NCBI GenBank assembly: GCA_903881315.1
Contig: CAIRSR010000113.1
Location: forward strand, 4,693-68,692
DNA: 64,000 bases
Reading direction: 5' to 3'
Source: an uncultured Thiotrichales bacterium
Lineage (GTDB): Bacteria > Pseudomonadota > Gammaproteobacteria > CAIRSR01
The notes under the pieces were generated by a model. It saw only the letters and a program-made list of their open reading frames with translations. It ran no database searches and was not told the origin of the DNA. The translations under genes and the position numbers were made by a program. Positions within the stretch are counted from its first letter, which is position 1. Each line of letters opens with the position of its first letter. Positions 5,510-61,537 of this stretch are shown here, one piece after another.

Positions 5510-5608
5510 GGATGACTCTAAGTAGTGGTTGCCGTCCCTTTGGGGTTGAAGAATTTGCTGTCGCGTCTGTCTCAATGAAATTGTGGGTAGTTGAGTGGCC
5601 ATCCATCG

Positions 5609-16568: not shown

Positions 16569-16577
16569 TCTAGTGAC

Positions 16578-22181: not shown

Positions 22182-22232
22182 TTTGGTGAATTGCAGTCGT
22201 CGCGTCGCTCTCTGAATGGTTGGAGGTTGGCT

Positions 22233-27300: not shown

Positions 27301-30300
27301 CTATCCAGCGGGCGCTCGTCCTGCCAGTCGCGGCTGCGCTGCCCGTGCAGATGGTGTTGCAAGCGAGCGCGGATGGCTACCGCTTTACCATCTATGCGCC
27401 GACCGAGGGCGTTCCCGGGGCTACTTGGCAGCCGTATTCCGCAGGCGAGTTGGTCGCGGGGGTCTTGCCGCTTCGCCCCATGATTACGCTGGATGAGATG
27501 CGAGCGCACTGTGATGAGGCGTTTCCGGTTAGCGAATACTATCGGCTGGCGCACTCGGTGGGGATTGCCCACAGCGCAGACTTCCAGGCGCTGACCGGTC
27601 TCTGGCGTGCGCCGGATGCGGTGCTGGCGAGGATTGAACTGCCGCCTGCGCTGGCGGGGGAGGCGGGCGCGTTTCGGTTGCATCCGGTGCTCTTGGATGC
27701 GGCCTTTCAGGCGGCGAGTGTGTTGCTGCTCGCGCGCGGTGTTACCTACCTGCCGGTCGGTCTTGCCGAGTTACAGACTACCCGCCCGTTGCCCAAACAG
27801 TTGTGGTGCTGGGTCACGGCGCAGGCGGGCGCGGAGGACGCACGGTTGTTTCTGGCTGACCTGCAATTGTTCGATGATGAGGGTGAGCAGATTGCTGAGG
27901 TGCGCGGGCTTTGCTTCCAGCAGGTTGATGTCCACGTCCTCACCGACGCCAGGCGGCGCTATGGGTCGTGGCTCTACCAGATTGCCTGGGAGACGCAACC
28001 GCTCTTTGGTGTGCAGCCACCGTGCTCACCGCCACAATTGGGTGTCGCGCTCGCCGAGGCAACGCGCGAACTGGTGCCGCAGTGCGCGTTTTATCAGCCG
28101 TTTTTGGCGGGTCTTGAGCAGTTGGCGGGCGGCTATATCCAACAAGCGCTACAGCAGTGTGGTTGGCAGCCAGCGCCGAACAGTGTCTTTACTACCCCTG
28201 CCTTGGCCAAACAACTCGGTGTGCAAGAGTCCTTTGCTGCGTTGTTTGAGCGCTGTCTCGCCATCCTCGCCGAGGACGGTGTTCTCCGCCGCGAGGCCGA
28301 CCAGTGGCGGGTAGTGACGCCCCTTGTGGCGTTGTCTCCTGCTGTGGTCGAGGCATTGCGTCTGCAGTATCCGGCGGCGCTGCCGGAGATTACGCTCTTG
28401 GAGCGTTGCGCGAGCGTTCTTGCTGGTGTGTGGCGTGGTGAGGTCAATCCACTGCATCTCTTGTTCCCAGAAGGTTCGCTTTCGGTCACGACGTTGCTCT
28501 ACCAGCATTCGGTGGGGGCGCGGATCATCAATGATCTGCTGGCGTCTGCGGTGCAACGAGCGGTTGCGGGTCTGCCGACAACCCAGGGCATTCGCATCCT
28601 AGAGATCGGCGGCGGCACCGGTGGCACCACGACGCGCTTGTTGCCACTGCTTCCGGTGGGGCGTAGCGATTATCTGTTTACTGACATCTCGACCTACTTT
28701 ACCAACCATGCCAAGCAGCAGTTTGGCGGCGAGTATGGCTTTGTCCGTTACGGATTGCTCGATATTGAGAAATCACCACCGGCGGAACTGTGCGGCCAGT
28801 TTGACCTTGTCGTTGCCGCGAATGTGGTACACGCCACCCGTGTGCTTGGCGAGACCCTGGCCCATTGCGCGGAACTGCTGGCCCCAGGCGGGATGTTGGT
28901 GCTCCTCGAGGCAGAGGCCCGCCAACGCTGGCTCGATCTCACTTTTGGCATGACCGACGGTTGGTGGCGCTTTATCGGTAGCGACCCGTTCCGCGCTGAT
29001 TATCCCCTCTTGACGACCGAGCAATGGCGTACATTACTGCCAACCTGTGGGTTTGATGGGGTGACGATACTCGGGCCCGATCAATACAGCGAAGCGGCAC
29101 AGTTACGCCAAAACATCGTTCTCGCACGACGCGCTCTGCGGGAGGTTGCTCTCCCGCCCCGTCTTGCGCTGGGTCGTTGGTTGATTGTTGGCGACAGTGG
29201 GCCCGGGGGGGTTGGCGCACTCTTGGCCGAGCGCTGTGTCGGACGCGCAACGCTGGTTGCCCGTGACGCTTTTCTTAGCAACAGTGCCGCATTGTTGGCA
29301 GAACCGCTCGCGGGGGTTGTGTTGGTGTATGCCCTCGAAGAAGACACGCCCCTCGAAGCGCCCCAAGCACTGCTTCATGCACAAGAGCGTATCAGTACGC
29401 CGTTGTTGCGGTTGTTGCAGGGTTTGGGGAATGAGCGGACGTGCGCATTGTGGGTGGTCACCCGTGCGGCGATAGCCGTACCGTCCGATCCGTCTTGCGA
29501 GGCTTCCGACTTGGCGCGTGACGCACAAGGTCTGGTGCAGACCGTGCTGCATGGCCTGATGCGCAGTGCCGTTGTCGAATATCCGCAATTACAAACGGTG
29601 GTTCTCGACCTCCCCGCCGCTGAAAGCAAGGCCGCGAGCGCCGAGCGCGTCTGGCGCGAGTTTGCCGCAGCGCAACAACCCGAGGAGGTGGTGGTGCTGC
29701 GCGATGCGGGTCGGTTCGTGCGTCGGCTGCAACGCGATGACGCCCAACCCGTCGCGAAACGCTTGAGTCTTAGCGCCGAGGCTTCTTATCTCATTACGGG
29801 TGGTCTTGGTGACCTTGGGCTGCTCGTGGCGCACTACCTAGTAGAGCAGGGGGCACGCTACCTGGTCTTGCTCGGGCGGAATGGGCCGCGTGAGAGTGCG
29901 AAGGCAAGTCTCGCGGCACTCGAAGCGGCTGGGGCTGTGGTCGAGATTGCAACGCTTGATATTACCGATGACCTCGCGCTTCAGGCCTTGCTCGCATTGC
30001 CTCGGCCACCCCTGCGTGGGGTTGTCCATGCGGTTGGTGCGCTTAGCAACGGCGCTTTGGCGACAATGGACTGGCCGAGGCTTGCGTCCGTCTTGAGCGC
30101 CAAGGTGTTGGGTGGCTGGAACTTACACCAGGCAACCGAGACGTTGCCGCTTGATTTCTTTATCCTATTTTCTTCGATCAGCTCAGTATTCTGGTCGGAG
30201 GCGCAAGGCAACTATGCTGCCGCCAATGCCTTTCTTGATGAGCTGGCGGGATTCCGAGAGCAACGACAACTGCCCGCACTCGTGATCAACTGGGGCGCTT

Positions 30301-30965
30301 GGTCGGAGATTGGTCTTGCGGCCCGCACCGGCGCGTTGGCCCACGCGACGGGGCAGGGTGTCGCGGCGATTCGGCCAGACGACGGCATCGCCCTTTTCGA
30401 CCTGCTCTGGCAGCGGCAAGGGCAGGTGATAGTAACGTCGGTGGACTGGCCGAACCTGCTCCGGCAACTACCAAAGCCAATGCCGTTGGTAGAGCACTTT
30501 AGGGACAAGCAGGCAGCGGCGGTTGTTGCGGCAATGGGAGGTAGCGCTTGGCTTACGCAGTTGCGTACACTGCCAACGAACGAACAGCGTGCGGTATTGC
30601 TCGATCGCGTGCGCGAAGAGGTTGCGCGGGTGATTGGTGGTAGCGCCTCCCAGCTCGACGATCAGACCGGGTTTTTCGATCTAGGGGTTGATTCTCTGAC
30701 CGCAGTAGAGTTACGCAATGCCTTGCAGGCGGCTTTACCAGTAAACTTACCGGCAACGCTGTTGTTTAAGTATCCGAACATTGCTGCGCTGGCTGCCTTC
30801 TTGGCGACCGAACTGCTAAGTGAGGGGTCGCCTCCGGTGGCTCCTCCCCAAGTTGCTGTTGCTTCCGCAGCGCCGACGACTGCCGCGCTTGAGGTTGGCA
30901 GCATGTCGGAGGCGGAGCTAGAGGCCTTGATCAATGATGAATTCGCTAATCTCAACGAGTATTGA
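24306..30965 (+). CDS. Type I PKS, module 3: KS-AT-DH-cMT-KR-ACP
   Basis: Docking-like LLALQEMQAKVARLE. KS: DTACSSSL (24909), HGTGT, NVGH. AT: GQGAQYLQMG, GHSVGE (26274), SHAFHS. DH: HQIFGQVVLPAAGH (27193), LLDAAFQ. C-methyltransferase SAM motif ILEIGGGTGGTT (28596). KR: TGGLGDLG (29793), no LDD. ACP: LGVDSLT (30680). Confidence 0.95.
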   Translation: MTQKPELSPTKRALLALQEMQAKVARLESQQREPIAVVAMACRFPGGANTPEAFWQMLCEARDAITEIPPERWDVEAYYDKDPNVPGKMYTRFGSFLSAIDAFDPIFFGITPREAHSIDPQHRLLLPVTWEALENGGFDVNALYGSRTGVYVGISNFEYGAALWSDSPERISAYSGTGGSLGVAAGRLSYTFGFTGPSMIIDTACSSSLVTTHLAMQALRLGECDLAISAGVNLIYGPETHINFCKARMLAADGHCKTFSAAADGYARGEGVGVLVLKRLSDAKRDGDTVLALLRGSAVNQDGPSGGLTVPNGPSQVKVIRAALASGEIHPDQVGYLEAHGTGTALGDPIEMGALATVFGLRKTPLRVASVKTNVGHLESAAGIAGLIKAVLSVQHGAIAPHRNFEQPSPHIDWASISVAIPTALTEWPDPVRIVGVSSFSFSGTNAHVVVSNDVPVGATVEALTHEPSPLVAPTTWPATRLLALSAKSSAGLQALAARVADDLERRPSNAWHGYCVAAARGRGHYSHRLTLLADTPAAAATRLRVGEAQTSRRPVNPPRIAFLFTGQGAQYLQMGRELYEQEPYFRSILEQCEAIASPLIGRSLLGLLYPAPEAATPEAEALLAATEYTQPLLFAIEYGLAQLWRHWGIEPEALIGHSVGELVAATVAGLWTLETGLTLTCARGRLLAALCSPGAMASVPLSSAAVSARLATYRERASGVVLASINGPESVAVAGSAASLNALIAALAAEGIEAKPLRVSHAFHSPLVEPMIAAFRAELGSVRFATPTIPILSNLNGEFADPQVLATPAYWCRHLREPVRFADGLARLLAEGFDTFIEVGPKPTLCAFGMAQAEALGMTASWLPSLRYRVEPWRQLLLSLGELYRLGLDVAASALAQGGPRYPLRLPNMPFQTDHYWLEKPAERVRLRGGHPLLGERLETPLLAAGGVLFVNELSAESFLAHHQIFGQVVLPAAGHMEMALAAAGALLPNGAWLREVTIQRALVLPVAAALPVQMVLQASADGYRFTIYAPTEGVPGATWQPYSAGELVAGVLPLRPMITLDEMRAHCDEAFPVSEYYRLAHSVGIAHSADFQALTGLWRAPDAVLARIELPPALAGEAGAFRLHPVLLDAAFQAASVLLLARGVTYLPVGLAELQTTRPLPKQLWCWVTAQAGAEDARLFLADLQLFDDEGEQIAEVRGLCFQQVDVHVLTDARRRYGSWLYQIAWETQPLFGVQPPCSPPQLGVALAEATRELVPQCAFYQPFLAGLEQLAGGYIQQALQQCGWQPAPNSVFTTPALAKQLGVQESFAALFERCLAILAEDGVLRREADQWRVVTPLVALSPAVVEALRLQYPAALPEITLLERCASVLAGVWRGEVNPLHLLFPEGSLSVTTLLYQHSVGARIINDLLASAVQRAVAGLPTTQGIRILEIGGGTGGTTTRLLPLLPVGRSDYLFTDISTYFTNHAKQQFGGEYGFVRYGLLDIEKSPPAELCGQFDLVVAANVVHATRVLGETLAHCAELLAPGGMLVLLEAEARQRWLDLTFGMTDGWWRFIGSDPFRADYPLLTTEQWRTLLPTCGFDGVTILGPDQYSEAAQLRQNIVLARRALREVALPPRLALGRWLIVGDSGPGGVGALLAERCVGRATLVARDAFLSNSAALLAEPLAGVVLVYALEEDTPLEAPQALLHAQERISTPLLRLLQGLGNERTCALWVVTRAAIAVPSDPSCEASDLARDAQGLVQTVLHGLMRSAVVEYPQLQTVVLDLPAAESKAASAERVWREFAAAQQPEEVVVLRDAGRFVRRLQRDDAQPVAKRLSLSAEASYLITGGLGDLGLLVAHYLVEQGARYLVLLGRNGPRESAKASLAALEAAGAVVEIATLDITDDLALQALLALPRPPLRGVVHAVGALSNGALATMDWPRLASVLSAKVLGGWNLHQATETLPLDFFILFSSISSVFWSEAQGNYAAANAFLDELAGFREQRQLPALVINWGAWSEIGLAARTGALAHATGQGVAAIRPDDGIALFDLLWQRQGQVIVTSVDWPNLLRQLPKPMPLVEHFRDKQAAAVVAAMGGSAWLTQLRTLPTNEQRAVLLDRVREEVARVIGGSASQLDDQTGFFDLGVDSLTAVELRNALQAALPVNLPATLLFKYPNIAALAAFLATELLSEGSPPVAPPQVAVASAAPTTAALEVGSMSEAELEALINDEFANLNEY
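28390..29085 (+). other. C-methyltransferase domain inside PKS3 (approximate bounds)
   Basis: Class I SAM fold: ILEIGGGTGGTT, DYLFTDIS, FDLVVAANVVHAT, LLAPGGMLVLLE. Located between DH and KR. Confidence 0.8.
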
Positions 30966-33900
30966 GCGTGACTGTAGCCAGTAGCCGTGGTGTTGCAACA
31001 CCGGATGACATGAGCCCCCTCCAGCGGGCGGCGCTAACGATTCGCGAGCTAAAGAGTAAGCTTGAGGACAGTCGCCAATCCCAGTTTGAGCCGATAGCCG
31101 TTGTCGGCATGGATTGTCGTTTTCCCGGGGCGTCTTCGCTTGATGAGTTTTGGGCGTTACTGCGCGATGGGGTGGATGCGGTGCGTGAGGTGCCGCTGGA
31201 TCGTTGGGATCTGTCGGAGTGGTTTGACGCAAACCCGAACGCTGCCGGTAAGATCAATACCCGTCATGGCGCTTTTATCGAGGATGTCGCGGGTTTTGAT
31301 GCTGCGTTCTTTGGCATCCCGCCCCGTGAGGCTATGCAGATGGATCCTGGCCAACGCCTGTTGTTGCAGATCACCTGGAGCGCACTCGAGCGGGCGATGA
31401 TCCCGCCGGAGTCGTTGCGCGGCAGTCGTAGCGGTTTTTTTGTCGGCATGAGCCAGAATGATTATGGCTCCCTCCAGATCAATGGCGACCCGAGTGCAAT
31501 TACCGCCTACAGTGGTACCGGGAATGGCTGGTGTTTTGCGTGTGGGCGCATTGCCTTTCAGTATGGTTTCAACGGCCCGGCCCTGACCACCGATACGGCC
31601 TGTTCTTCGTCGCTGGTGGCCATGCACCAGGCGGTCAATGCCCTGCGTATGCGCGAGTGTGATGTAGCCATGGCGGCGGGTGTGCAGCTCAACCTAACGC
31701 CGCCGATGCAGGTGTTTTTCGCCCGTACCCAATCCTTTTCGCCAGACGGTCGCTGCTTTACCTTTGATGCACGGGCGAACGGTCTGGTGCTCGGGGAAGG
31801 CGTGGCGGTGGTGGTGTTGCGACGCTTGAGCGATGCGTTACGCGATGGGCAGCCTGTCCTGGCGGTGATTCGCTCGACCAGCCTCAACCATGATGGTGCC
31901 TCGGGTGGGCTGACCGTGCCGAATGAGAGCGCCCAAGAGGCGCTGATCCGTGACGCATTGCAACGTGCGCGGGTCGCCCCAGACAGTATCGATTATATCG
32001 AGACCCACGGCACTGCCACCCCGCTTGGCGATCCTATCGAGGTCGGCGCATTACGCGCCGTGTTTGGCAAGCGCCCCGCGAGTCAGCCGCTTACCATCGG
32101 CTCGGTCAAGACCAACATCGGTCATCTGAACGCCTCGGCGGCGATTGCGGGTTTTATCAAGACCGTGTTAATGCTGCAACACCAGCAGATGGTTCCGCAT
32201 CTGCACTACCGCGAACCGAATCCCAAGATACCCTGGCAGGGTTTTGCGGTACAAGTGCCGACTGCGTTGCAACCTTGGCCGGCACCGCCGTTAGGTCAGC
32301 CGCGCCGTGCGGGTCTCAGTTCCTTTGGTTTGAGCGGCACCAATGGTCATCTCGTGTTAGAGGAATGGCCGATAGCGGTTGCAACCCCGCAAACCGAGCC
32401 CCCAGTGGTGGAGCGCCCACTGCACCTGTTCGCCCTTTCGGCGCGGAGTGAAGTGGCGCTACGGGCGTTGGCCGCGAGTCATCGGCAACGGCTTAGTGCA
32501 GATCAGGGGCTATCGTTGGCTGACTATTGTTATAGCGCCAATGCCGGTAGGAGCCATCTTGGTTGGCGCGCCATTGTGTGTTGTGCCACCATTCTTGAGT
32601 TGCAGGAGGCCCTGGGTGCGCTGGCTGTGGGTAGCGAGCATCCGTGTTTGCGTGGCCCACAGCGAAACCGTGGCGCAGCGCCTAAGGTGTTGATGACGCT
32701 CGCGCACGACCCTGCACCGTGGCTGATAACGCATCCGGTCTCTCGCAAATGGCTTGCCCACTATGCTCGTGTGAGCGGATTGCTGCTTGATACAGCAGTG
32801 CTTGACGCCAACCGCACACCCGCCACAGAACTTGCAGGCTACCTGGTGCTCGCCGCGCTGTGGCAGGCGTGGGGGGTACAACCAACCGCCGTGCAGGGGG
32901 TTGGCGGTGGTCGCTATGCGGCGGCGGTGCTCGCTGGTGCGCTTACTGCCGAGGAGGCCTTTGCGGCTCTTCTGCAAGGTCGAGCGCCCGTCCTCGCGGC
33001 CCCACAGCGCACCCTGCTGGAGGGGGATGGCAGTCGCCTGGTGTCCCTCCAAGGGGGGGGGCAGCCTTTGGCGGCGCTAGCGGGCTACGATGTGCGGTTG
33101 TCTCTCGGCAGAGAGGACGCGCCGGAAGAGGGCTCTTCTTTGCCCTGGACGAGTGTGCTCGAGGAGCTGGTGGCCTTCTATCTGGAGGGAGGCGCGGTTG
33201 ACTGGCGTGGTTTCGATGCGGGTTACGGGCGGCATTGGTTGGTTCTGCCTACCTATCCCTTTGCCCGCGACCGTTACTGGCGCGACAATCAGGTTGTAGC
33301 TCCGCCGACAAAGGTGGTGGCAGCGCCTGTGGTGGCAATGGAGCGAGACAACCCGCCCGCTCTGGCGGCGGAGCCGGAAAAGGGCGCACCGTCTGTTGCA
33401 CCGGAGGGTGAGCCACCGGTGTCGGTAGCGCCAGTGGTGTCAGCGCCGACGGAACCGGTATCGGCCCGAGCGTCGTTAGTCCCCGAACCAACAACTGCAG
33501 TGGTTTCGTCCTCGTGGTCGTTGGCGCAATTGATGGAGCGCCAGTTGCAACTGGTCGCTGAGGCCATCAGTAGTGTGACGCTGCAGCAATTGACGGCGCT
33601 GCAGGTCATTACTGCGGCAGGGGCTAAGGTGGCGGCGGTTGGGCCCGCTTGCGACGCTCCTTCCCAGGTGCCACCTCTTGCGCCCAATCCGCTAATTGCA
33701 GAGGGGACGCAGGGGCAGTCCCTCCCCGAGGGGGAGTCTTTCACCGAACAATCAGAGAAAGAGAGACCTTCTCAACCGGAAGAAACGAGTGGGGGAGCAG
33801 CGCACGGGACGGGTGAGTGCCACATGACAACGGATGGTTGTGGTGGCGCTGCTGAAGACCCTCCGGTTTCTCCAGTAATCCCTGTGGCCAGCGTAATCGA

Positions 33901-35245
33901 TCCGCTGCGTTGTGGTGATTGGCGCTTGTTGCTCTGCCACGCTGCCGACCCGGATGCGCTCTTGGCCGAGCGGCAGTTGCTTGCGGCGCAAATTATCGAT
34001 GCCCCCGATGCGGTGCTGGCCGCGAGTCGCAAGGCCTTGCAGCAGCCCCCTGCCGTTGGTCGGCGATTGATGCTGAGTTATCAGGATGTTCAAGAGGCCG
34101 CCCTGGCGCTCGGCACCCAAGGCAGTAAGCGAGTAATCAGCGCCGCTAGTCATGAACAGGCACCAGCGGTTGTCTTTATGTTTCCAGGCGTGGGGGATCA
34201 CTACCTCAATATGGGGCAGGGTCTGTATCGGGCAGAGCCGTTATTCCGCGCGATCGTTGATCATTGTTGTGACTATCTGTTGCCGGTAATCCATGTTGAT
34301 CTGCGCACGGTGCTCTATCCGCTGGAACCAGTGAATACAAATCCTGAGGCCGCAGCACCGAAATTCGATCTGCGTGCTATGTTGGGGCGTGGGTCTTCTC
34401 CACCCAATCCGCAATTAGAGCGCCTGAATCAGACGCTGCATAGTCAACCGCTGTTGTTTATTATCGAATATGCGTTGGCGCGGTTGTGGTTGGCGCGGGG
34501 TGTGCAGCCGCTTGCGATGATTGGTTACAGCATTGGCGAATACACTGCGGCGGTTTTAAGTGATGTGATGGCGCTGGATGATGCCCTGCGACTGATTGCC
34601 CGTCGCGCCGAGCTGATTGAGGGGGTTGCCCCGGGCGCAATGTTGGCGATACCGTTGGGTCTAGATGCCTTGCAATCACGACTTGGTGGGGGGCTTTCTT
34701 TGGCGATTAGCAGTACGCCGAATCAGTCGGTGGTTGCCGGGCCCGTTCTGGCTATTGAGGCATTGCAAGAGCAGCTCAAGGCGCAAGAGGTGGTGTGTCG
34801 AAGGCTGCAAAGCAGTCACGCATTCCATTCGACCATGCTACAACCCTTGCACCAGCCATTGCGGAAACTCGTGAGTGAGTTTCGTTTGCAAGCGCCGCGC
34901 ATCCCCTATATTTCTAATGTGACGGGGGATTGGATTCGAGATGCCGAGGCGACCGACCCCGACTATTGGGCACGTCATACCTGGCAGACGGTGCGTTTTG
35001 CCGATGGCCTAGGGCGGCTGCTGGCGCCGGACGCATTTGCTGGCGCGAGTAATCGGCTATTTCTAGAGGTGGGCCCGGGGGTAAGCCTTGGTAGTTTCAT
35101 GCTGCAGCACCCGGCGTCGGCGCAATTGGCGCGGAAAGTGAGTCTGCCAACACTTCGCACGATGTATGAGCGAACCCCCGACGAGCAATTCTTGCTAAAC
35201 ACCCTGGGTAAACTCTATCTGGCTGGTGTCCAATTATCTCTGTAA
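30962..35245 (+). CDS. Type I PKS, terminal protein: KS - degenerate AT-like region - about 290-aa low-complexity linker - intact AT; no ACP, no release domain
   Basis: The start (TTG 30962 or GTG 30968) overlaps the PKS3 stop codon. Docking-like LTIRELKSKLEDS. KS: DTACSSSL (31592), HGTAT, NIGH. See the domain sub-features below. Confidence 0.9.
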   Translation: MSVTVASSRGVATPDDMSPLQRAALTIRELKSKLEDSRQSQFEPIAVVGMDCRFPGASSLDEFWALLRDGVDAVREVPLDRWDLSEWFDANPNAAGKINTRHGAFIEDVAGFDAAFFGIPPREAMQMDPGQRLLLQITWSALERAMIPPESLRGSRSGFFVGMSQNDYGSLQINGDPSAITAYSGTGNGWCFACGRIAFQYGFNGPALTTDTACSSSLVAMHQAVNALRMRECDVAMAAGVQLNLTPPMQVFFARTQSFSPDGRCFTFDARANGLVLGEGVAVVVLRRLSDALRDGQPVLAVIRSTSLNHDGASGGLTVPNESAQEALIRDALQRARVAPDSIDYIETHGTATPLGDPIEVGALRAVFGKRPASQPLTIGSVKTNIGHLNASAAIAGFIKTVLMLQHQQMVPHLHYREPNPKIPWQGFAVQVPTALQPWPAPPLGQPRRAGLSSFGLSGTNGHLVLEEWPIAVATPQTEPPVVERPLHLFALSARSEVALRALAASHRQRLSADQGLSLADYCYSANAGRSHLGWRAIVCCATILELQEALGALAVGSEHPCLRGPQRNRGAAPKVLMTLAHDPAPWLITHPVSRKWLAHYARVSGLLLDTAVLDANRTPATELAGYLVLAALWQAWGVQPTAVQGVGGGRYAAAVLAGALTAEEAFAALLQGRAPVLAAPQRTLLEGDGSRLVSLQGGGQPLAALAGYDVRLSLGREDAPEEGSSLPWTSVLEELVAFYLEGGAVDWRGFDAGYGRHWLVLPTYPFARDRYWRDNQVVAPPTKVVAAPVVAMERDNPPALAAEPEKGAPSVAPEGEPPVSVAPVVSAPTEPVSARASLVPEPTTAVVSSSWSLAQLMERQLQLVAEAISSVTLQQLTALQVITAAGAKVAAVGPACDAPSQVPPLAPNPLIAEGTQGQSLPEGESFTEQSEKERPSQPEETSGGAAHGTGECHMTTDGCGGAAEDPPVSPVIPVASVIDPLRCGDWRLLLCHAADPDALLAERQLLAAQIIDAPDAVLAASRKALQQPPAVGRRLMLSYQDVQEAALALGTQGSKRVISAASHEQAPAVVFMFPGVGDHYLNMGQGLYRAEPLFRAIVDHCCDYLLPVIHVDLRTVLYPLEPVNTNPEAAAPKFDLRAMLGRGSSPPNPQLERLNQTLHSQPLLFIIEYALARLWLARGVQPLAMIGYSIGEYTAAVLSDVMALDDALRLIARRAELIEGVAPGAMLAIPLGLDALQSRLGGGLSLAISSTPNQSVVAGPVLAIEALQEQLKAQEVVCRRLQSSHAFHSTMLQPLHQPLRKLVSEFRLQAPRIPYISNVTGDWIRDAEATDPDYWARHTWQTVRFADGLGRLLAPDAFAGASNRLFLEVGPGVSLGSFMLQHPASAQLARKVSLPTLRTMYERTPDEQFLLNTLGKLYLAGVQLSL
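32414..33286 (+). other. Degenerate (catalytically dead) AT-like / KS-AT linker region of PKS4
   Basis: GQGxQ is replaced by KVLMTLAHDPAPW. The GHSxG nucleophile is replaced by GVGGGRY (32897-32917). The region is shorter than the ATs of modules 1-3, but the post-AT motif YPFARDRYW is kept. Confidence 0.7.
34157..35245 (+). other. Intact C-terminal acyltransferase domain of PKS4 with variant nucleophile elbow
   Basis: VVFMFPGVGDHYLNMG, GYSIGE (34523-34540) instead of GHSxGE, SSHAFHS, EVGPG. It lies at the extreme C-terminus with no carrier domain after it. Confidence 0.8.
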
Positions 35246-35265: not shown

Positions 35266-36123
35266 ATGAATAATAACACCGTGGGTGTTGTTGGTGCTGG
35301 GGTTATGGGTAGTGGTGTTGCGCAGAATCTGGCGCAGAGCGGTTTTACTGTCGTACTGATCGATATTAATGAGAAGGTATTGCAACGTACCGAGGCAGAG
35401 ATTCGTAAGAATGTTCGCTTCTCGGCGTTTTATGCAAAGGATAAAACGAAGGTTGAATCAGTGGAGACGGTCTTAGGTCGCATCGAGTTTACGACGGATT
35501 ACAGTAAACTCGCGACTGCCTATTTTATTGTTGAGAATGCCTCGGAGATATGGGAGGTAAAGCAGGCGGTCTATCCGTTGATTGATAAATATGCGCCGCC
35601 CGAGGCGCGCGTTGCTGCTGATACCTCGTGTTTTTCGATTACTCGTTTGGCCTCATTGACCGCACGGCCCGACAAGATCATCGGTATGCACTTTATGAAT
35701 CCGGTGCCAATGAAGACCACCGTCGAGGTGATCAAGGGGTATCACACCAGTCCTGAGACCATTACGATTGGTCTTGATTTTCTGGCGCGGATGGGTAAGG
35801 ACGGGATTGTTGTTAATGATGCTCCGGGTTTTGTTTCTAATCGGGTGCTGATGCTTACGGTGAATGAGGCAGTCTTTGTGGTTCATGATGGGGTTGCGAC
35901 GGCGGCCCAGGTCGATGAAATACACCGCAAATGTTTTGGGCATAAAATGGGGCCCCTAGAGACAGCCGACCTGATCGGCCTAGATACGATCCTTTATTCA
36001 GTGGAAGTGCTTTGGGAGAGTTATAATGATAGCAAATATCGTCCGTGTCCATTGCTAAAGAAAATGGTTGCCGCCGGTTTACTGGGGCGTAAGAGTGGCG
36101 AAGGTTTCTACAAATACAAGTGA
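35266..36123 (+). CDS. 3-hydroxyacyl-CoA/ACP dehydrogenase (FkbK/ZmaG-like)
   Basis: GGGAG RBS. Rossmann motif VGVVGAGVMGSGVAQNLA. HFMNPVP, DAPGFVSNRV, GPLETADLIGLD. Confidence 0.85.
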   Translation: MNNNTVGVVGAGVMGSGVAQNLAQSGFTVVLIDINEKVLQRTEAEIRKNVRFSAFYAKDKTKVESVETVLGRIEFTTDYSKLATAYFIVENASEIWEVKQAVYPLIDKYAPPEARVAADTSCFSITRLASLTARPDKIIGMHFMNPVPMKTTVEVIKGYHTSPETITIGLDFLARMGKDGIVVNDAPGFVSNRVLMLTVNEAVFVVHDGVATAAQVDEIHRKCFGHKMGPLETADLIGLDTILYSVEVLWESYNDSKYRPCPLLKKMVAAGLLGRKSGEGFYKYK

Positions 36124-36134
36124 AAGAGTGAAAC

Positions 36135-36368
36135 ATGAGTACAATTGAAGACGCGGTGCGGAGTTTTCTCGGGCAGTTCGTCAGTGATCCGGATGTCGAG
36201 GGCGATCACGATCTGTTTAGTTCCGGCATGGTAAATTCTCTGTTTGCCATGCAGTTGGTGCTATTCGTTGAGAAGCAATATGGTATCACGGTGGCAAACG
36301 AGGATCTTGATTACGAGAATTTTAAATCAGTGAATGCCATTGTCGGTTTTATCCAGTCAAAGCAGTAA
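36135..36368 (+). CDS. Discrete acyl carrier protein (FkbJ/ZmaD-like)
   Basis: 77 aa and acidic. Helix II motif SSGMVNSLFAMQLVLFVE (Ser in NSL as the putative phosphopantetheine site). Sits between the two dehydrogenase genes. Confidence 0.75.
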   Translation: MSTIEDAVRSFLGQFVSDPDVEGDHDLFSSGMVNSLFAMQLVLFVEKQYGITVANEDLDYENFKSVNAIVGFIQSKQ

Positions 36369-36381
36369 TGGGAGTAGCGTG

Positions 36382-37569
36382 ATGGACTTTGATCTAACCA
36401 CCGAGCAGTCTCGTGCCAAGAGTGAATTTCGCCAGTGGGTGGAACAATGCGTGGTGCCGGTAGCTGATGCCAATGACAATCGTGAACAAACCCCACCGGA
36501 GTTGATTGCCGAGATTGCGGCAAACGGTTATCTCGGTGCATTGGTTGCAAAGGAATACGGTGGGAGGGGCATGGATGCGTTGACTTGGGGGCTTTTGTGC
36601 GAAGAGGTGGGGCGCGGTAGTGCCTCGTTGCTGAGTTTGCTTACTGTGCATGGCATGGTCATCCAATCCCTAGCGAAATGGGGCACACTTGCGCAGCGTG
36701 AGCGGTGGTTACCAAAATTGGCAACGGGTGCCACGGTTGGTGCGTTTGGGCTTACCGAGCCGAATATTGGCAGTGACGCGAAGAATATTGAGAGCACGGC
36801 AGTGTTACAAGCGGATGGAACCTATCTGCTGAATGCCGAGAAACGCTGGATATCCTTTGGCGCATCGGCTGACCTGGTGCTCGTCATTGCCAAGGTTGGC
36901 GATAAGGCGACTGCCTTTTTGGTAGAACGCGGTATGCCAGGGTTTTCGATAGAGCCAATTCGTGGGATGCTTGGTTTTCGTTCGGCAAATATTGCGCGCC
37001 TTTTGATGCGTGATGTGATTATTCCTGCTCAGAATATCGTCGGGAAGGTTGGTTTTGGTTTCTCACATATTGCTGGGACTGCGCTTGATCATGGTCGCTA
37101 CTGTGTCGGTTGGGGCTGTGTTGGGCTTGCCCAGGCGGCATTGGATGCAGCGCTCTCTTATTCCGGCGAGCGCTATCAGTTTGAAGTGACATTAAATAAA
37201 CACCAACTGATCCAAGAGATGTTGGCCGAGATGATCGTCAACGTCAAAGCGGCGCGGATGCTGAATTACCATGCGGCCTTCCTCAAGGATCGAGGCGATC
37301 CGTCATTGATTATGGAAACATCAATGGCAAAATATTTTGCGTCGCGGGTTGCCAGTCAGGCTGCAAATGCTGCCGTGCAGATCCATGGTGCCAATGGTTG
37401 TTCTAGCGATTATCCGGTGCAGCGTTATTTTCGTGACGCCAAGATTATGGAGATCATCGAGGGCAGCAACCAGATGCAGCAGATCATCATTGCCAAATCA
37501 GGTTATCAACAACATTTGGTGAACAAACGGGCAGCACGGCGCTCAGCGGCAGAAGGGGAGGGGCGGTGA
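36382..37569 (+). CDS. Acyl-CoA/ACP dehydrogenase family flavoprotein (FkbI/ZmaE-like)
   Basis: GGGAG lies before ATG 36382. FGLTEPNIGSDA, RWISFG, QIHGANGCSSDYPVQRYFRDAKIMEIIEGSNQMQ. The ORF track's earlier start overlaps the ACP gene and was not used. Confidence 0.85.
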   Translation: MDFDLTTEQSRAKSEFRQWVEQCVVPVADANDNREQTPPELIAEIAANGYLGALVAKEYGGRGMDALTWGLLCEEVGRGSASLLSLLTVHGMVIQSLAKWGTLAQRERWLPKLATGATVGAFGLTEPNIGSDAKNIESTAVLQADGTYLLNAEKRWISFGASADLVLVIAKVGDKATAFLVERGMPGFSIEPIRGMLGFRSANIARLLMRDVIIPAQNIVGKVGFGFSHIAGTALDHGRYCVGWGCVGLAQAALDAALSYSGERYQFEVTLNKHQLIQEMLAEMIVNVKAARMLNYHAAFLKDRGDPSLIMETSMAKYFASRVASQAANAAVQIHGANGCSSDYPVQRYFRDAKIMEIIEGSNQMQQIIIAKSGYQQHLVNKRAARRSAAEGEGR

Positions 37570-38621
37570 TGGCTGGGAAGCAGAAGGAAAAGGATCATAA
37601 AGTAAAATGCCTGGTCTGGGATCTCGATAACACCCTATGGCGCGGCACACTGCTAGAAGACAAAGAGGTAATGCTGATCCCCGAGGCGGTTGAGTTAATC
37701 AAGACGCTGGATGATCGCGGTATTCTGCAATCCATTGCGAGCAAGAATGATCATCCGCTGGCGGAAAAGAAACTGCGCGAACTCGGATTATTCGATTACT
37801 TTCTCTATCCGCAGATCAACTGGGATGCCAAGTCGCAGTCTATCCAGAAGATTGCAACGCTCATTAATATTGGTATTGATACCCTAGCGTTTATTGACGA
37901 TCAAGCGTTTGAGCGCGAGGAAGTGAGCTTTAGTCATCCGCAGGTACTTACCATTGATGCGGCTCTCGTGGCGCAAGTGGCCGAGTTAGCGGTAATGCGT
38001 CCGCAGTTTATCACCGAGGATTCGCGGCGGCGGCGGGAGATGTACCAGAGCGACCTGAGGCGGAAAGAGGTCGAGGAGGGTTTTAGTGGCCCGCAGGATG
38101 CGTTCCTAGAAACGCTGGGTATGGTGCTGACGATTAGCCAGGCCAAGCAGGACGACTTGAAAAGGGCGGAGGAACTAACCCAGCGTACCAATCAGCTCAA
38201 CACTACTGCATATACCTACGATTATGATGAACTCGCAGTCTTTAGTACGTCTTCCGATTATCTGCTATTGGTTGCGGGGCTCGATGACAAATATGGGACG
38301 TACGGTAAGATTGGCCTAGTTCTGGTCGAGAAGCGTGGGCAAACCTGGTTGATTAAGCTGCTGCTCATGTCTTGCCGGGTAATGTCGCGCGGTGTTGGGA
38401 CGGTGATGATTAACTATTTGCGGAACATGGCGCGTGCTGCTGGGGTGGCATTAGAGGCCGAGTTTGTTCAGAATGACAGAAATCGCATGATGTATATGAC
38501 GTATAAGTTTAATCATTTCCGTGAGAAGGAAAAGCGCGATAATTGGATCTTGCTTGAGAATGATCTAAGCAGGGTACAGGTGTATCCTCCTTATATGAAA
38601 CTGATAACCGATGAGATGTAA
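37569..38621 (+). CDS. FkbH-like HAD-superfamily phosphatase/glyceryl-ACP loading enzyme
   Basis: The start overlaps the upstream stop codon (GTGATG). HAD motif I VWDLDNTLW, SKN, FIDDQ. C-terminal LLLMSCRVMSRGVG is Cys-containing and resembles the FkbH/OzmB catalytic region as I recall it. About 350 aa. Confidence 0.8.
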   Translation: MAGKQKEKDHKVKCLVWDLDNTLWRGTLLEDKEVMLIPEAVELIKTLDDRGILQSIASKNDHPLAEKKLRELGLFDYFLYPQINWDAKSQSIQKIATLINIGIDTLAFIDDQAFEREEVSFSHPQVLTIDAALVAQVAELAVMRPQFITEDSRRRREMYQSDLRRKEVEEGFSGPQDAFLETLGMVLTISQAKQDDLKRAEELTQRTNQLNTTAYTYDYDELAVFSTSSDYLLLVAGLDDKYGTYGKIGLVLVEKRGQTWLIKLLLMSCRVMSRGVGTVMINYLRNMARAAGVALEAEFVQNDRNRMMYMTYKFNHFREKEKRDNWILLENDLSRVQVYPPYMKLITDEM

Positions 38622-38645: not shown

Positions 38646-39821
38646 ATGACGCAAGCAGTGGAATTTTTCGATAGCACAGCGGTTGATCAGGGAAGCCAAG
38701 GATTCTCTGGTGCAGTTAGTGATGGGCGCTATCTGTATTTTGTGCCGATGGCAAATGGGCCGGGTCGGTTTTCTGGTCAGGTGACCCGTTATGACAGTCA
38801 TGGCGACTTTCAGGATCCGACCAGTTGGACGGTGTTCGATACTGCGGTTGTTAATTCGGCGAGTCGCGGTTTTGCGAATGGTCTGTTTGATGGTCGCTAT
38901 CTGTATATGATTCCGTATCACAATGATCAGCACCATGGTCAGGTCACTCGTTACGATACCCGAGGGGAATTTGATAGTCCCGCCTCGTGGGATTTCTTTG
39001 ATGTACAGATCCTCATTGACACTGGACGTGGTTTTGTGAGTGGTTGTTTCGACGGTCGTTATCTGTATCTTACGCCGTATCAAATTTCATGGACGCTGTA
39101 TAACGGTACGATGGTTCGTTACGACACAACCAGAGACTTTGCTGATAGAGATAGCTGGGAGGTGTTTGACAGCACATCGCTATCAAGCATGAGTTGTGGT
39201 TTTCATTCGGCAGTGGATACTCGGGATTTTATCTATTTTGTGCCATTTGTCCGTGCGCAGCGTGATTATCATGGGCTATTGGTGCGTTTTCGGCGTAGTG
39301 GTGGCTTTGCTGATCCAAATAGTTGGGAGATGGTTGACATCAAGGGATTCAACCCGCGTGGCTGCGGTTTCATTGGTGGCTGTTTTGATAGCCAATACCT
39401 ATATCTCGCTCCCTATTTTGATGGAAAGGGTCGATTTGGGCAGGTGGCTCGCTATGACAATTTGCAGCCACTTAACGAGGATGCTAGCTGGCAATTCTTT
39501 GACACTGAATTGGTGCACAGCGAAAGTCGTGGATTCTTTGGGACGTTACTTCACAACGAGTTTATTTATTTTATCCCGCACTGTAAGGCGGAAGGAATAT
39601 ATAACGGTCAGATCACTCGTTACGATCGAAGAGAGTCTTTTATGAGTCCATCTGCCTGGTCTGTGTTGGATACTGCCGCTTATCACCCGATGAGTAAGGG
39701 CTATATTGGGGGAGCGGTGATAAATAATTATCTTTATATGGCACCCTACGAAACAGCGCCAGCAGCGCATAGTGGATTAATTGCAAGGATTGATTTGGCT
39801 GTGCGTACCGTTTGGAAATGA
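38646..39821 (+). CDS. Seven-repeat (beta-propeller-like) protein of unknown function
   Basis: Seven tandem units of about 55 aa with consensus SW..FD......GF.G..FDGRYLY..PY......G.V.RYD....F: DGRYLYFVP, DGRYLYMIPY, DGRYLYLTPY, RDFIYFVPF, DSQYLYLAPY, NEFIYFIPH, NNYLYMAPY. No signal peptide and no catalytic motif that I recognise. Confidence 0.7.
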   Translation: MTQAVEFFDSTAVDQGSQGFSGAVSDGRYLYFVPMANGPGRFSGQVTRYDSHGDFQDPTSWTVFDTAVVNSASRGFANGLFDGRYLYMIPYHNDQHHGQVTRYDTRGEFDSPASWDFFDVQILIDTGRGFVSGCFDGRYLYLTPYQISWTLYNGTMVRYDTTRDFADRDSWEVFDSTSLSSMSCGFHSAVDTRDFIYFVPFVRAQRDYHGLLVRFRRSGGFADPNSWEMVDIKGFNPRGCGFIGGCFDSQYLYLAPYFDGKGRFGQVARYDNLQPLNEDASWQFFDTELVHSESRGFFGTLLHNEFIYFIPHCKAEGIYNGQITRYDRRESFMSPSAWSVLDTAAYHPMSKGYIGGAVINNYLYMAPYETAPAAHSGLIARIDLAVRTVWK

Positions 39822-45140: not shown

Positions 45141-45722
45141 TTAATCCGTGTGGTAAACCTTTTCCTTGACCAAACTATAGCCCCAGGGCAGGCCGGCATT
45201 CTTCCAGCCGTTCTCATCGCGCCGCCCGGTTGTTTTGCTGAGATCGCCTTCAAAGCCTTCTACCGCCGAGTATACCTTGGTATATCCAACCGTTGCCAGG
45301 AGATTGGCGGCAGCCGCACTGCGATCACCAGAACGACACATCAAAACAATGGTGCTGTCCTTATTGCCCCCCTTAAGTTCCACCAACTTGGTAAGCGCGA
45401 GTTGGAAATTGCTGTTTGCTTCAAGCTGGAATGCCTTGGTTTTGTCGTCAAATTTAACATCGTCTAGGGTGGGAAATACCTTGTAGGGGATATTTGCGTC
45501 AACCATATCGGTCATGCCGACAAACATGGTCTCCTCCGGGGTGCGGATATCTATAAAGATGACCTTGCTGTCCTGCATCTTCATATCGTACGCCTCTTTC
45601 GGCGTTACATAAAGTTTCAGCGTCGTTTGTTTCTTTGGATTGGTGACTTGGGCGGCGTCTAGGGCATAGGCTGGTGTGCCCATGGCAACAATAACAGCAA
45701 GAGCGATCTTCGCAAGTTTCAT
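45141..45722 (-). CDS. Periplasmic single-domain rhodanese (SoxL-like sulfurtransferase)
   Basis: Signal peptide MKLAKIALAVIVAMGTPAYA. Rhodanese active-site loop MCRSGDRSAAAANLL. It is the last gene of the sox string on the minus strand. Confidence 0.8.
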   Translation of the reverse strand: MKLAKIALAVIVAMGTPAYALDAAQVTNPKKQTTLKLYVTPKEAYDMKMQDSKVIFIDIRTPEETMFVGMTDMVDANIPYKVFPTLDDVKFDDKTKAFQLEANSNFQLALTKLVELKGGNKDSTIVLMCRSGDRSAAAANLLATVGYTKVYSAVEGFEGDLSKTTGRRDENGWKNAGLPWGYSLVKEKVYHTD

Positions 45723-45847
45723 TATCTTTATCCTAAGCGAGTTGTGAGAATGCTTGAGCCTGTAATTTCTTGTTTGGCGCACTACGCGATCCATGATGCG
45801 CCGGGCGTTTTGCCATCCTGTTCCTGATTATTCCTATGGGACACCGC

Positions 45848-46675
45848 CTACTTTCTGGCACTCGGCCCAGAGACCGGAATGCCGGTATTCATATAGGCCT
45901 CGAAATATTCAAGGTCGCGGTATTCCTCGCTTTGGTATGCGAAGGGCTTGGCGCGAACCTGCTCGTTACAGCCTCGGTAGCGGTGATGCAGGGTGCCAAG
46001 AAATCCCCAGGCGGAACGATAGGTTGGGAAACCGACGCCGTGGCCGAGCGCGGGGCTCAGGGTCTCGGAACGTATCTTTTTGCCGGCATTGTTGACATGG
46101 CAATCGGCGCAGGCAAAATTTAATTGGCCACGTTTGGTGTAGAAGAAGTGTTTACCCTTTTCGTAGGCTGCCAGGGCGCGGGGGTCATCCGGGATCGTCA
46201 CTGCCATTGGTTTTCCCCGTGAGGTAAAGGCCAGGTACGCAACCACATCAGCAATATTGCCCTTGCTGAGTTCTTCGTAGGGCTTCTCGTTATTTTCTGT
46301 GCGGCATTGGTTGATTACCACCTCCATGGTTTGTACCTGACCGCTAGCAGCATCGAAACGAGGGAAGGTTTGACGGATACCAATTCCACGATTGGGGAAA
46401 CAATCGGCGAGGCTTTTGCCGTTGGCGAAAGGTTTCTCGAAGATCTTCTTGCCGTTGTCGACATTCGGGTCGTACGGCGGGAATTCTTCGATGGCCTTCC
46501 AATTCTCACGACCTTCCTGATCTAAGGCGTAGGCCCCATTGGCGAACTCGGCGTTTGGAATATTCGGAAACGCATTGTGAAATAAGCCCTGAAACTGTGC
46601 CAAATCCTCCGCTGGACTGGCGAAGACCGTCGGTGCAATCCAGAAGGTAAGCAGCAATAGTATCGTTTTACGCAT
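45848..46675 (-). CDS. soxA: SoxA, monohaem c-type cytochrome subunit of SoxAX
   Basis: Signal peptide. A single CxxCH (FACADCH). Cys axial-ligand region HHRYRGCNEQVRA. The usual N-terminal second haem site is absent (DCFPNRG). Confidence 0.9.
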   Translation of the reverse strand: MRKTILLLLTFWIAPTVFASPAEDLAQFQGLFHNAFPNIPNAEFANGAYALDQEGRENWKAIEEFPPYDPNVDNGKKIFEKPFANGKSLADCFPNRGIGIRQTFPRFDAASGQVQTMEVVINQCRTENNEKPYEELSKGNIADVVAYLAFTSRGKPMAVTIPDDPRALAAYEKGKHFFYTKRGQLNFACADCHVNNAGKKIRSETLSPALGHGVGFPTYRSAWGFLGTLHHRYRGCNEQVRAKPFAYQSEEYRDLEYFEAYMNTGIPVSGPSARK

Positions 46676-46699
46676 GGTGACCTCGGGAGGCAAAGGGTT

Positions 46700-47020
46700 T
46701 TAGCTCGCTACCTTGGTTGTAAAGGAGTCGCTGTCGCCGGTATTGTCTTTCCAGGTGAGGGTGACACTATCGCCTATTTTGGCACCCTGGACATTGAACG
46801 CGAGATACGGATTTTTGGAGACCGATCCGCTCCAGAGGGCGGTGAGGATGGTGGTGCCATTCAGACTACAAACGACCTCTTCGATGAAATGGGCGGGGAC
46901 GAGTTCGCCGGTTTTCTGGTCTTTGCGCAGCCCATTCTCCATTGGGTGATTGATGAGCGCCTTGATGGTGGCAACATCGCCATTCAGTTGGATACGAATC
47001 TTAATAGTATTGCTGGCCAT
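46700..47020 (-). CDS. soxZ: SoxZ, sulfur carrier complex subunit
   Basis: 106 aa. IKIRIQLNGDVATIKALINHPMENGLRKD..VPAHFIEEV..LNG. Immediately downstream of soxY. Confidence 0.9.
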   Translation of the reverse strand: MASNTIKIRIQLNGDVATIKALINHPMENGLRKDQKTGELVPAHFIEEVVCSLNGTTILTALWSGSVSKNPYLAFNVQGAKIGDSVTLTWKDNTGDSDSFTTKVAS

Positions 47021-47069
47021 GGTGAATAAGTTCCTCGTGAATCACTAGAATTGGATAGTAGGGGCGCTA

Positions 47070-47534
47070 TTAACCGCCGCAGCCGCCGATGGTTACTTTT
47101 ACTTCCTTTGCGGTGGAGAGGCGTTTATCACCAACCTTTACCACGGCGATCACATTCGATGTCTTAGACATTTTTAGGCGGGTGGAGATGTTCGGCTGCA
47201 CGCCCGGGCCAAGGATAAAAACAGCGGAGAGCGGGCGCGGGTTATCCTTCACGAGGAGGGAGATAGATTCGACATTGGTCAGGGTGCTTTCTACGGTTAC
47301 GGGTACTACGGCACCATTTTCGGCGATGTCAGGGGTTTTGAGGGATACTTCATTCGACGCACTGCCTTCGTTACCGCTGAGTGCGGTATGTACGTCTTTG
47401 GCATCAAAGAGGTCAGCGGGCCAGGTGGCTGCCAATACCTCGCGTGGGTTTAGGAGGCCACTGCCGGTTGCGATTCCGACTAGGGTAGTCGCCAGGGTGT
47501 TTCTTAGGAAGTTTCTGCGATTAGCGGTAGTCAC
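47070..47534 (-). CDS. soxY: SoxY, sulfur carrier protein
   Basis: Tat signal RRNFLRNTLA. Diagnostic C-terminal swinging-arm motif VKVTIGGCGG. Confidence 0.92.
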   Translation of the reverse strand: MTTANRRNFLRNTLATTLVGIATGSGLLNPREVLAATWPADLFDAKDVHTALSGNEGSASNEVSLKTPDIAENGAVVPVTVESTLTNVESISLLVKDNPRPLSAVFILGPGVQPNISTRLKMSKTSNVIAVVKVGDKRLSTAKEVKVTIGGCGG

Positions 47535-51292: not shown

Positions 51293-51560
51293 GATTTGAT
51301 TTCCGATATTTTGACCATAAATTATAGCAGCATTCGGAAGGGTGCCAATTTTTGCAGAACGAAACACGAGAATGGATTATGATACAGCGACTCGCTTTGC
51401 TGGGCCAGAACGTGTTGGTGCTGGTGTGGGCGGTGTTCCGCCGGTTACTTCTCCTGTGTGTGATGGTCGTCATCTATGATGATAACCTTTCTCCGTCCTC
51501 ACGCGGGATTGCGGGTACTACTGAGGGTTGGGTCATCTGTTAGGGCAGAGTGTTACGACC

Positions 51561-61442: not shown

Positions 61443-61537
61443 GATAAATCCGCTACGATACCATGGATAACTATCATCCCGCTTTTTGCGGCAACTTGGT
61501 AGACTATCTCTTCCATGACATTAAGGGTAAGGTGGGA

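Follow-up and report, generated by a model that had tools for sequence, protein, structure and literature searches.

What do four closely spaced genes at the end of a modular polyketide synthase (PKS) cluster supply to the synthase, and which of its domains takes up their product? The question is raised by a 64,000-nucleotide stretch of DNA from an uncultured Thiotrichales bacterium (contig CAIRSR010000113.1, here called the window), in which positions 35266–38621 had been described in an initial annotation as a cassette for a glycolysis-derived extender unit. Together with a 4.8-kb extension upstream of the window, about 69 kb of the locus was examined. With a probability that we put at roughly 0.78, the four genes specify a route of the ZmaN/ZmaD/ZmaG/ZmaE type to hydroxymalonyl-ACP (ACP, acyl carrier protein), so that the neighboring modular PKS is provided with a glycolate extender unit. 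Hydroxymalonyl-ACP puts a free α-hydroxyl group into the polyketide backbone, and the characterized pathways known to employ it are few, among them those of zwittermicin, xenocoumacin/amicoumacin, butyrolactol, and guadinomine.

The cassette genes are all on the forward strand. The first, at 35266–36123, encodes a 3-hydroxyacyl dehydrogenase of the FkbK/ZmaG type (HCDH, 285 aa; 3HCDH_N, 1.4e-52; 3HCDH, 1e-32), with a GAGVMG NAD-binding motif at 35293–35310 and an HFMNP motif at 35689–35703. It is followed by a gene for a discrete ACP of the FkbJ/ZmaD type (36135–36368, 77 aa; PP-binding, 1.7e-7), the predicted carrier of the extender unit, where the phosphopantetheine-attachment Ser is found inside 36231–36242 (VNSL motif); every other ACP in the window is part of a PKS module. 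The third gene, at 36382–37569, encodes an acyl-ACP dehydrogenase of the ACAD family (FkbI/ZmaE type, 395 aa) that matches four of four ACAD Pfam domains, and its true start is the ATG at 36382, not 36334. The product of the fourth gene (FkbH, 37569–38621, 350 aa) is a predicted HAD-IIIC phosphatase and glyceryl transferase of the FkbH/ZmaN type, with 277.8 bits against TIGR01686 (cutoff 146.65), profile positions 3–321 of 323 being covered, and 66 bits against TIGR01681. It contains DLDNT at 37620–37634 and SCRV at 38370–38381; according to published work on OzmB and FkbH, DxDxT is the phosphatase motif and the conserved Cys the site of the glyceryl-enzyme intermediate. The spacing is tight, with 20 nt between the preceding PKS gene (PKS4) and HCDH, 11 nt between HCDH and ACP, and 13 nt between ACP and ACAD, whereas ACAD and FkbH share a one-base stop/start overlap (TGATG). 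Stored gene calls on independent contigs give identical lengths of 285, 77, 395, and 350 aa. The packing of the four genes, their identities, and the DLDNTLW and SCR motifs of FkbH are thus as the initial annotation had them, and the profile search that it proposed places FkbH well above the TIGR01686 cutoff.

For comparison, the zwittermicin proteins were taken from a Bacillus thuringiensis plasmid, where the cluster was recognized by the annotated zmaJ and by gene order. In this system ZmaD, ZmaE, and the ZmaA acyltransferase (AT) have been studied experimentally as a hydroxymalonyl-ACP pathway (PMC4207774; PMC6395733). The window has the same four enzyme types, at 43–54% identity, and like zwittermicin no O-methyltransferase (O-MT): FkbH is 52.8% identical to ZmaN over 335 aa, HCDH 52% to ZmaG over 279 aa, ACAD 43% to ZmaE over 356 aa (38% to ZmaI), and the ACP 54% to ZmaH and 44% to ZmaD, with the motif G-x-VNSLFA-x-Q common to all three carrier proteins. 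The Cys motif of FkbH (LLLMSCRVMSRGVGT) is the same in ZmaN, and the Asp motif differs at two positions (WDLDNTLW in the window, WDLDCTIW in ZmaN). Differences are seen in the organization. The zwittermicin genes are dispersed, with zmaN apart from zmaD–G and ZmaG shared with the aminomalonyl branch, whereas the window has a contiguous HCDH-ACP-ACAD-FkbH order and an added β-propeller gene. The FkbG/H/I/J/K subclusters of FK520, ansamitocin, and geldanamycin likewise contain equivalents of FkbH, FkbI, FkbJ, and FkbK that feed a cis-AT modular PKS, but they belong to actinomycete hosts and not to a Gammaproteobacterium, and they include the O-methyltransferase FkbG, which is absent in the window.

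Not all FkbH-like proteins serve extender-unit synthesis, and a grouping of the window protein with HAD enzymes that modify lipopolysaccharide or capsule had been named as a point to be checked. In tblastn comparisons of FkbH with plasmids, the matches listed form two groups, one at 45–59% identity (the ZmaN group) and one at no more than 32%. A neighbor-joining tree places the window FkbH inside the ZmaN clade, separated by a long branch from FkbH-like proteins of the glyceryl-ACP/glycan type, so that the grouping with PKS extender-unit enzymes stands. The proteins of the second group are larger (540–650 aa) and 27–29% identical to the window FkbH. They resemble the present system in combining a HAD-IIIC FkbH domain with a partner ACP, as known from tetronate and butenolide formation and from glycan or lipid acylation, but have different partners: the Clostridium perfringens representative adjoins an ACP and a nucleotidyltransferase, that of Streptomyces a KSIII, an ACP, and an AfsA-like protein, and that of Sinorhizobium meliloti an ACP and an MBOAT protein. 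The two dehydrogenases are absent beside all three of these representatives. A sequence search of solved structures with FkbH was uninformative, returning only the HAD part of an uncharacterized Bacteroides protein (3SLR) and MDP-1.

By analogy with the characterized homologs, FkbH would use the Asp motif (DLDNT) and the Cys (SCRV) to take a glyceryl group from 1,3-bisphosphoglycerate and transfer it to the discrete ACP. HCDH would then catalyze the NAD-dependent oxidation of glyceryl-ACP at C3 to the aldehyde, 2-hydroxy-3-oxopropionyl-ACP, and ACAD is predicted to oxidize the aldehyde to the acid in the last, FAD-dependent step, with hydroxymalonyl-S-ACP as the product. The unit would stay unmethylated, because no O-methyltransferase is available. 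It is most likely the C-terminal AT of PKS4 that receives the unit from the ACP, so that the ketosynthase (KS) of PKS4 can use it in condensation, which would place the α-hydroxy group beside the methyl branch from the preceding C-methyltransferase (C-MT) module in PKS3.

The assignment to hydroxymalonyl-ACP depends on the methyltransferases (MTs) of the locus. A missing FkbG alone is insufficient, since chondrochloren makes methoxymalonyl-ACP by means of an in-line O-MT, without a discrete FkbG (PMC6395733), and the in-line MT of PKS3 therefore had to be typed. PKS3 (24306–30965, forward strand; KS-AT-DH-cMT-KR-ACP by Pfam) is the module ahead of PKS4 and holds the sole MT domain within the PKS genes. 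The best match of this domain among solved structures is the C-MT of CurJ (5THY, 299 bits), with further matches to the C-MTs of DisA, AprA (MT2), CitS, and LovB, and no O-MT, including those of StiD/E, is found among the solved-structure matches of this region. A hidden O-MT in PKS3 was considered and rejected, the domain being of the CurJ C-MT type. The myxobacterial chondrochloren and pellasoren clusters are similar to the window in that these Gram-negative cis-AT PKS clusters have the four-gene core and no discrete O-MT (PMC6395733), but there an in-line O-MT (CndE) or a fused AT-ACP-O-MT protein (PelG) methylates the unit.

The searches for other methyltransferases agree with this picture. 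PKS1–PKS5 contain no second MT domain in a domain search, nor room for one. There is no discrete MT gene at positions 1–55000, no FkbG-like gene or in-line O-MT in the window and its 4.8-kb extension, and no intergenic gap long enough for an overlooked MT of at least about 220 aa. Two MT genes are present farther downstream, starting 16.6 kb and 23.4 kb past the end of the cassette. One (55239–61442, reverse strand) encodes a 2067-aa protein of nearly nothing but TPR repeats, with a weak FkbM-type MT domain at the C-terminus (residues 1971–2035), and the other (61999–62997) encodes a class I MT and overlaps a rhodanese gene. Genes for glycogen phosphorylase (GlgP), a kinase, Sox proteins, and GTPases are situated between the cassette and these two. 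The initial annotation, which had noted an in-line C-MT and no O-MT nearby, is correct on both counts, and its description of the other MT genes as lying in unrelated contexts holds; its distance of more than 17 kb applies to the farther gene and not to the nearer one. Around the cassette in related PKS loci, no O-MT was found among the open reading frames (ORFs) called. Within the approximately 69 kb seen, hydroxymalonyl-ACP rather than methoxymalonyl-ACP is supported as the predicted product, as the initial annotation had favored.

The probable user of the unit, PKS4 (30962–35245, forward strand), has an unusual architecture. Pfam searches show a KS, a dead and truncated AT (AT0), a post-AT linker, a further linker of about 250 residues rich in Ala and Pro, and a C-terminal AT. 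In AT0, the sequence GVGGG (32897–32911) replaces GHSxG, and the small subdomain with HAFH, where the catalytic His would be located, is deleted; the linker that follows is normal (YPFARDRYW). The C-terminal AT is complete, with GYSIG at 34523–34537. A Tyr in place of the His in GHSxG marks both ZmaA-AT, which uses hydroxymalonyl-ACP (GYSFG), and ZmaF, which uses aminomalonyl-ACP (GYSLG), whereas ZmaK-AT, FabD, and the DEBS ATs have GHS (PMC4207774, Table 2), and ZmaA-AT accepted ACP-linked but not CoA-linked substrates (PMC4207774). Against solved structures, the PKS4 AT scores 203 bits with 5YDA, 199.5 with ZmaA-AT (4QBU), and 159 with CurL, and a control, AT2, scores 274 with CurL and 145 with ZmaA. 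Unlike ZmaA, a normal module that includes an ACP, PKS4 combines a dead AT with a tethered AT and has no ACP. The same features are seen in PKS4 homologs. In the window protein and in 13 of 13 homologs examined, the catalytic Ser of AT0 is lost, the terminal AT has an invariant GYS[IV]GE motif where ordinary ATs at the same loci have GHS, and the protein ends 232–246 residues past the GYS motif, so that none of the 13 homologs has an ACP.

Counting the window and its upstream extension, there are five KS domains and four elongation ACPs, plus a loading ACP and the discrete ACP of the cassette. As PKS4 has no ACP, the discrete ACP, which is the only candidate carrier for module 4 in the window variant, probably doubles as elongation carrier of this module. 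At related loci the carrier is a different one, namely the N-terminal ACP of the next protein, an ACP-aminotransferase-NRPS protein with one NRPS (nonribosomal peptide synthetase) module.

Directly downstream of FkbH, at a distance of 24 nt, is ORF5 (38646–39821, forward strand), which encodes a 391-aa seven-bladed β-propeller. The protein matched no Pfam or NCBIfam family, and its 984 homologs are all named hypothetical. The AlphaFold2 (AF2) model has a mean pLDDT of 97.1 and shows the seven blades, but a fold search returned only generic Kelch, WD40, and designed propellers (TM-score at most 0.61) and no enzyme. Residues that are invariant in the family return at intervals of about 56 positions, once per blade, and because they look like positions of the repeat scaffold, no catalytic site can be proposed. 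A scan for promoters and terminators around ORF5 and in the 457-nt gap before glgP gave no excess over shuffled sequence. The strict position of the gene suggests a function of ORF5 together with the cassette or the split module.

Cassettes of this kind are not rare in genomes. There are 7575 FkbH protein matches at E ≤ 1e-10, and a published survey reports the four-gene module without an O-MT in 73 biosynthetic gene clusters (PMC6395733). Synteny was counted at 64 genomic loci with FkbH relatives of 48–86% identity: a contiguous HCDH-ACP-ACAD-FkbH order is found at 39 of the 64, an ORF5 homolog after FkbH at 20, and a GYS-type AT at 18. The initial annotation had called the extender unit rare; it is indeed uncommon among characterized products, though not in genomes. 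Four of the loci, from Kiritimatiellota/Verrucomicrobiota (L017, L031, L033, and L038), have the four-gene cassette without a PKS and a protein of 373–384 aa after FkbH, which in L017 has a GNAT acetyltransferase domain. The PKS-free loci suggest that hydroxymalonyl- or glyceryl-type units are used outside polyketide synthesis too.

A PKS4-type protein, the cassette, and ORF5 recur together at no fewer than 13 other loci in several phyla, including members of the Chitinophagales, Balneolaceae, Desulfamplus, Sulfuricellaceae, Propionivibrio, and Algibacillus, as well as Thalassomonas, Arenicellales, Verrucomicrobiales, Magnetococcales, and Thiotrichaceae. The shared order begins with a protein ending in DH-cMT-KR-ACP (at most loci; AT-DH-KR-ACP at two), followed by KS-AT0-AT(GYS), the cassette, and ORF5, and continues with an ACP-aminotransferase (class III)-C-A-PCP protein (C, condensation; A, adenylation; PCP, peptidyl carrier protein) and a KS-AT protein with further domains. 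Within 10 kb downstream of FkbH, the ACP-aminotransferase-C-A(-PCP) gene is found at 16 or more of the related loci. The window and its extension contain neither an aminotransferase nor a C domain, and no additional ACP. The same PKS-only arrangement, with PKS5-like and PKS4-like proteins, cassette, DUF697 protein, ABC transporter, and thioesterase (TE), is found in a Magnetococcales locus (L007).

The related loci, in which a C-MT module is followed by an extension module and then by an ACP-aminotransferase-NRPS protein, show a likeness to the β-amino fatty acid initiation of the puwainaphycin/minutissamide pathways, with its FAAL, C-methylating PKS, and PKS-aminotransferase-monooxygenase. 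For the corresponding motif, cyanobacteria have been proposed to use an aminotransferase together with a monooxygenase (PMC4219810). The proposed origin of the 2-hydroxy group from a monooxygenase domain in puwainaphycin differs from the related loci, which carry the hydroxymalonyl cassette and no oxygenase, and the window itself differs further in having no aminotransferase-NRPS gene. A tentative and rather doubtful proposal can be made for the conserved block of KS, dead AT, tethered GYS-type AT, HCDH, ACP, ACAD, FkbH, and seven-bladed propeller. It may form a self-contained glycolate-insertion module, in which the extender ACP would double as elongation carrier in the PKS-only variants and the propeller would be an obligatory partner, either as a scaffold or as an enzyme acting on the ACP-bound unit. 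Together with the ACP-aminotransferase-NRPS gene, the block might give α-hydroxy-β-amino lipids by a route distinct from the cyanobacterial one with an oxygenase. The family is found in at least four bacterial phyla, and among its members are many sulfur and magnetotactic bacteria that have not been cultivated. The chemistry of the pathway is already known. The module of dead AT and tethered GYS-type AT without an ACP, the propeller partner, and the spread over several phyla appear to be new in the open-access literature searched, where no account of the KS-AT0-AT/propeller arrangement was found and only known systems were returned.

The remaining parts of the synthase are more conventional. 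PKS1 (FAAL-ACP-KS-AT-DH-KR-ACP) and PKS2 (KS-AT-DH-KR-ACP), at 9204–22181 on the forward strand, constitute the loading and first extension modules according to Pfam, and their ATs are ordinary, with GHSVG and H(A/P)FH motifs. Between PKS2 and PKS3, a gene of the AsmA family (22191–24203, forward strand) has a GC content as high as that of the PKS genes. Members of the AsmA family have a connection to lipid transport and biogenesis at the outer membrane, and no AsmA homolog was seen within 10 kb of the cassette at other loci. At the start of the window, the C-terminal end of PKS5 is followed by genes for a DUF697 protein, an ABC transporter, and a discrete thioesterase (8–4509, forward strand; Pfam). 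PKS5 is whole in another contig, L065, where it spans 1142–5737 and ends at window position 916, the contig reaching 4821 nt beyond the window start. It has the domain order KS-AT-KR-ACP, with an AT (GYSLG/LPFH) that resembles ZmaF (GYSLG/GPFH). In L010, L019, L025, L028, L043, and L044, the downstream KS-AT proteins carry G[YCSV]SLG, and the lid is in most cases LPFH or APFH. The AT of this last module may thus bring in a second extender unit bound to an ACP. Probably, PKS5 is the last module of the same cluster, with the ABC transporter and the thioesterase serving for export and release; the DUF697, ABC transporter, and thioesterase genes adjoin the cassette in L001 and L007 too.

Some further genes of the window can be mentioned here. 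From the stretch 1386–8803 (forward strand), the accessory genes for the discrete thioesterase, the ABC transporter, and the small DUF697 protein recur near the cassette in distant taxa (L001, L007, L037, and L046), and a Band 7/SPFH protein is also found near it in the Scalindua locus L037. The small gene beside the ABC transporter of the cluster (1386–1943) encodes DUF697 only, and two adjacent paralogous GTPase-DUF697 genes are located at 48328–51367 on the reverse strand. The window has an APS kinase gene at 4787–5407, and no sulfotransferase was found. Genes for SoxA and SoxY and several rhodanese genes, at 45141–47534 (reverse strand) and 61463–62002 (forward strand), mark a sulfur-oxidizing gammaproteobacterium.

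The initial annotation had described the cassette as richer in AT than the PKS genes, and this is the case: cassette and ORF5 have a GC content of 45–53% and a GC3 (GC at third codon positions) of 0.44–0.60, about 10 GC points for the cassette below PKS1–PKS4 and the AsmA gene (60.5–62.9%, GC3 0.63–0.69). The step is sharp, at 35245/35266. An assembly chimera at this point was rejected, since independent contigs from other samples span the junction with PKS4 followed by HCDH. In GC content the cassette is like glgP, the kinase, and the Sox genes, and values up to 60% are seen in other housekeeping genes, argH among them. The genome is itself heterogeneous, and the step does not show which part is foreign. 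The closest relative, L001, a metagenome-assembled genome of the Thiotrichales, is 79% identical in DNA across the cassette, which there comes directly after the thioesterase gene. About 30.7 kb of the window (4510–35265), with the genes for APS kinase, Band 7 protein, periplasmic binding protein, and PKS1–PKS4, is absent from L001 (7440–7675), and homology resumes at the HCDH start codon. Because L001 carries the cassette without the intervening 30.7 kb, the cassette behaves as a movable unit.

A number of observations weigh against hydroxymalonyl-ACP formation and its use by PKS4. The PKS4 AT has an HAFH lid, the form usually seen in malonyl-specific ATs, where ZmaA-AT has GAAH. The RXR-equivalent positions read V-C-R versus M-C-M, and the calls from the YASH and RXR motifs are mixed. 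Because the GYS signature comes with an HAFH lid, the acyl specificity of this AT is not settled by sequence. The discrete ACP is nearer to ZmaH, the aminomalonyl carrier, than to ZmaD. ACAD scores 158 bits against FkbI (PDB code 1R2J) and up to 249 bits against generic acyl-CoA dehydrogenases, and as FkbI thus ranks below these, ACAD cannot be assigned to the FkbI type by sequence alone; its assignment is based on the similarity to ZmaE and on gene context. Module 4 is without an ACP, and the ACP-aminotransferase-NRPS gene of the related loci is absent, so that the window copy could be a rearranged and impaired cluster. Finally, the genome could encode an O-methyltransferase outside the sequence examined.

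These points lead to other explanations of the locus. If the window cluster were a rearranged and impaired remnant, the cassette would be intact and module 4 dead after loss of its carrier and of the aminotransferase-NRPS gene. The lack of an ACP in PKS4, the missing ACP, aminotransferase, and C domain that at least 16 related loci supply in one gene, the position of the cassette directly after the thioesterase gene in L001, and the sharp GC step at the PKS4/cassette junction are all in line with such a history. Nevertheless, the reading frames are all intact with a spacing of the coupling type, the same arrangement occurs in several independent samples, its presence in a Magnetococcales locus suggests a maintained variant, and the discrete ACP can supply the missing carrier, which together make a remnant unlikely. 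Synthesis of methoxymalonyl-ACP, as for FK520, ansamitocin, and chondrochloren, with the O-methyl group added by an MT outside the window or by an unrecognized domain, would use the same four-gene core, and could be argued from the chondrochloren precedent and from the two distant MT genes. This we regard as decidedly improbable, given that the only in-line MT is a CurJ-type C-MT in a set of PKS proteins with no room for another, and that the two distant genes are cut off by the GlgP, Sox, and GTPase genes, one of them being on the opposite strand and the other overlapping a rhodanese gene. In addition, no MT gene was seen adjoining the cassette in related PKS loci, and the closest characterized homologs, the Zma proteins, make an unmethylated unit.

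A third explanation severs the cassette from the synthase, with an acyl-ACP made for another purpose, for instance to acylate a glycan or lipid, or with aminomalonyl-ACP as the product, the PKS being merely adjacent. The PKS-free cassettes of Kiritimatiellota/Verrucomicrobiota with a GNAT-type acyltransferase after them, the ZmaH-like ACP, and a GC content unlike that of the PKS genes can be cited for it. It is nonetheless very hard to reconcile with a cassette that follows PKS4 at a distance of 20 nt in the same orientation, and with a neighboring AT that has the ACP-dependent GYS signature in a pairing kept across phyla; in addition, no GNAT or glycosyltransferase gene is adjacent. The aminomalonyl pathway, as known from ZmaG/H/I/J and ClbD/E/F/H, was rejected, as there is no seryl-adenylating A domain and FkbH occupies the loading position instead: a ZmaJ-type enzyme, needed for that route, is missing (a tblastn search with an A domain matched only the FAAL domain of PKS1 in the window and its extension), and FkbH is itself a sign that the unit derives from glycerate. 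We consider this explanation the most remote of those discussed, and hydroxymalonyl-ACP supplied to the adjacent PKS remains the preferred assignment.

The ZmaN-type cassette is thus widespread in uncultivated Gram-negative bacteria, where it has fixed partners in a dead AT with a tethered GYS-type AT, a module without an ACP, and a β-propeller. Isolates are represented among the related loci by three strains (Thalassomonas sp. RHCl1, Algibacillus agarilyticus RQJ05, and Delftia sp. PS-11), so that experimental discovery of the product family would be possible. If the discrete ACP does serve as both extender and elongation carrier, the arrangement would represent a compact and portable means of glycolate insertion that would be useful for PKS engineering.

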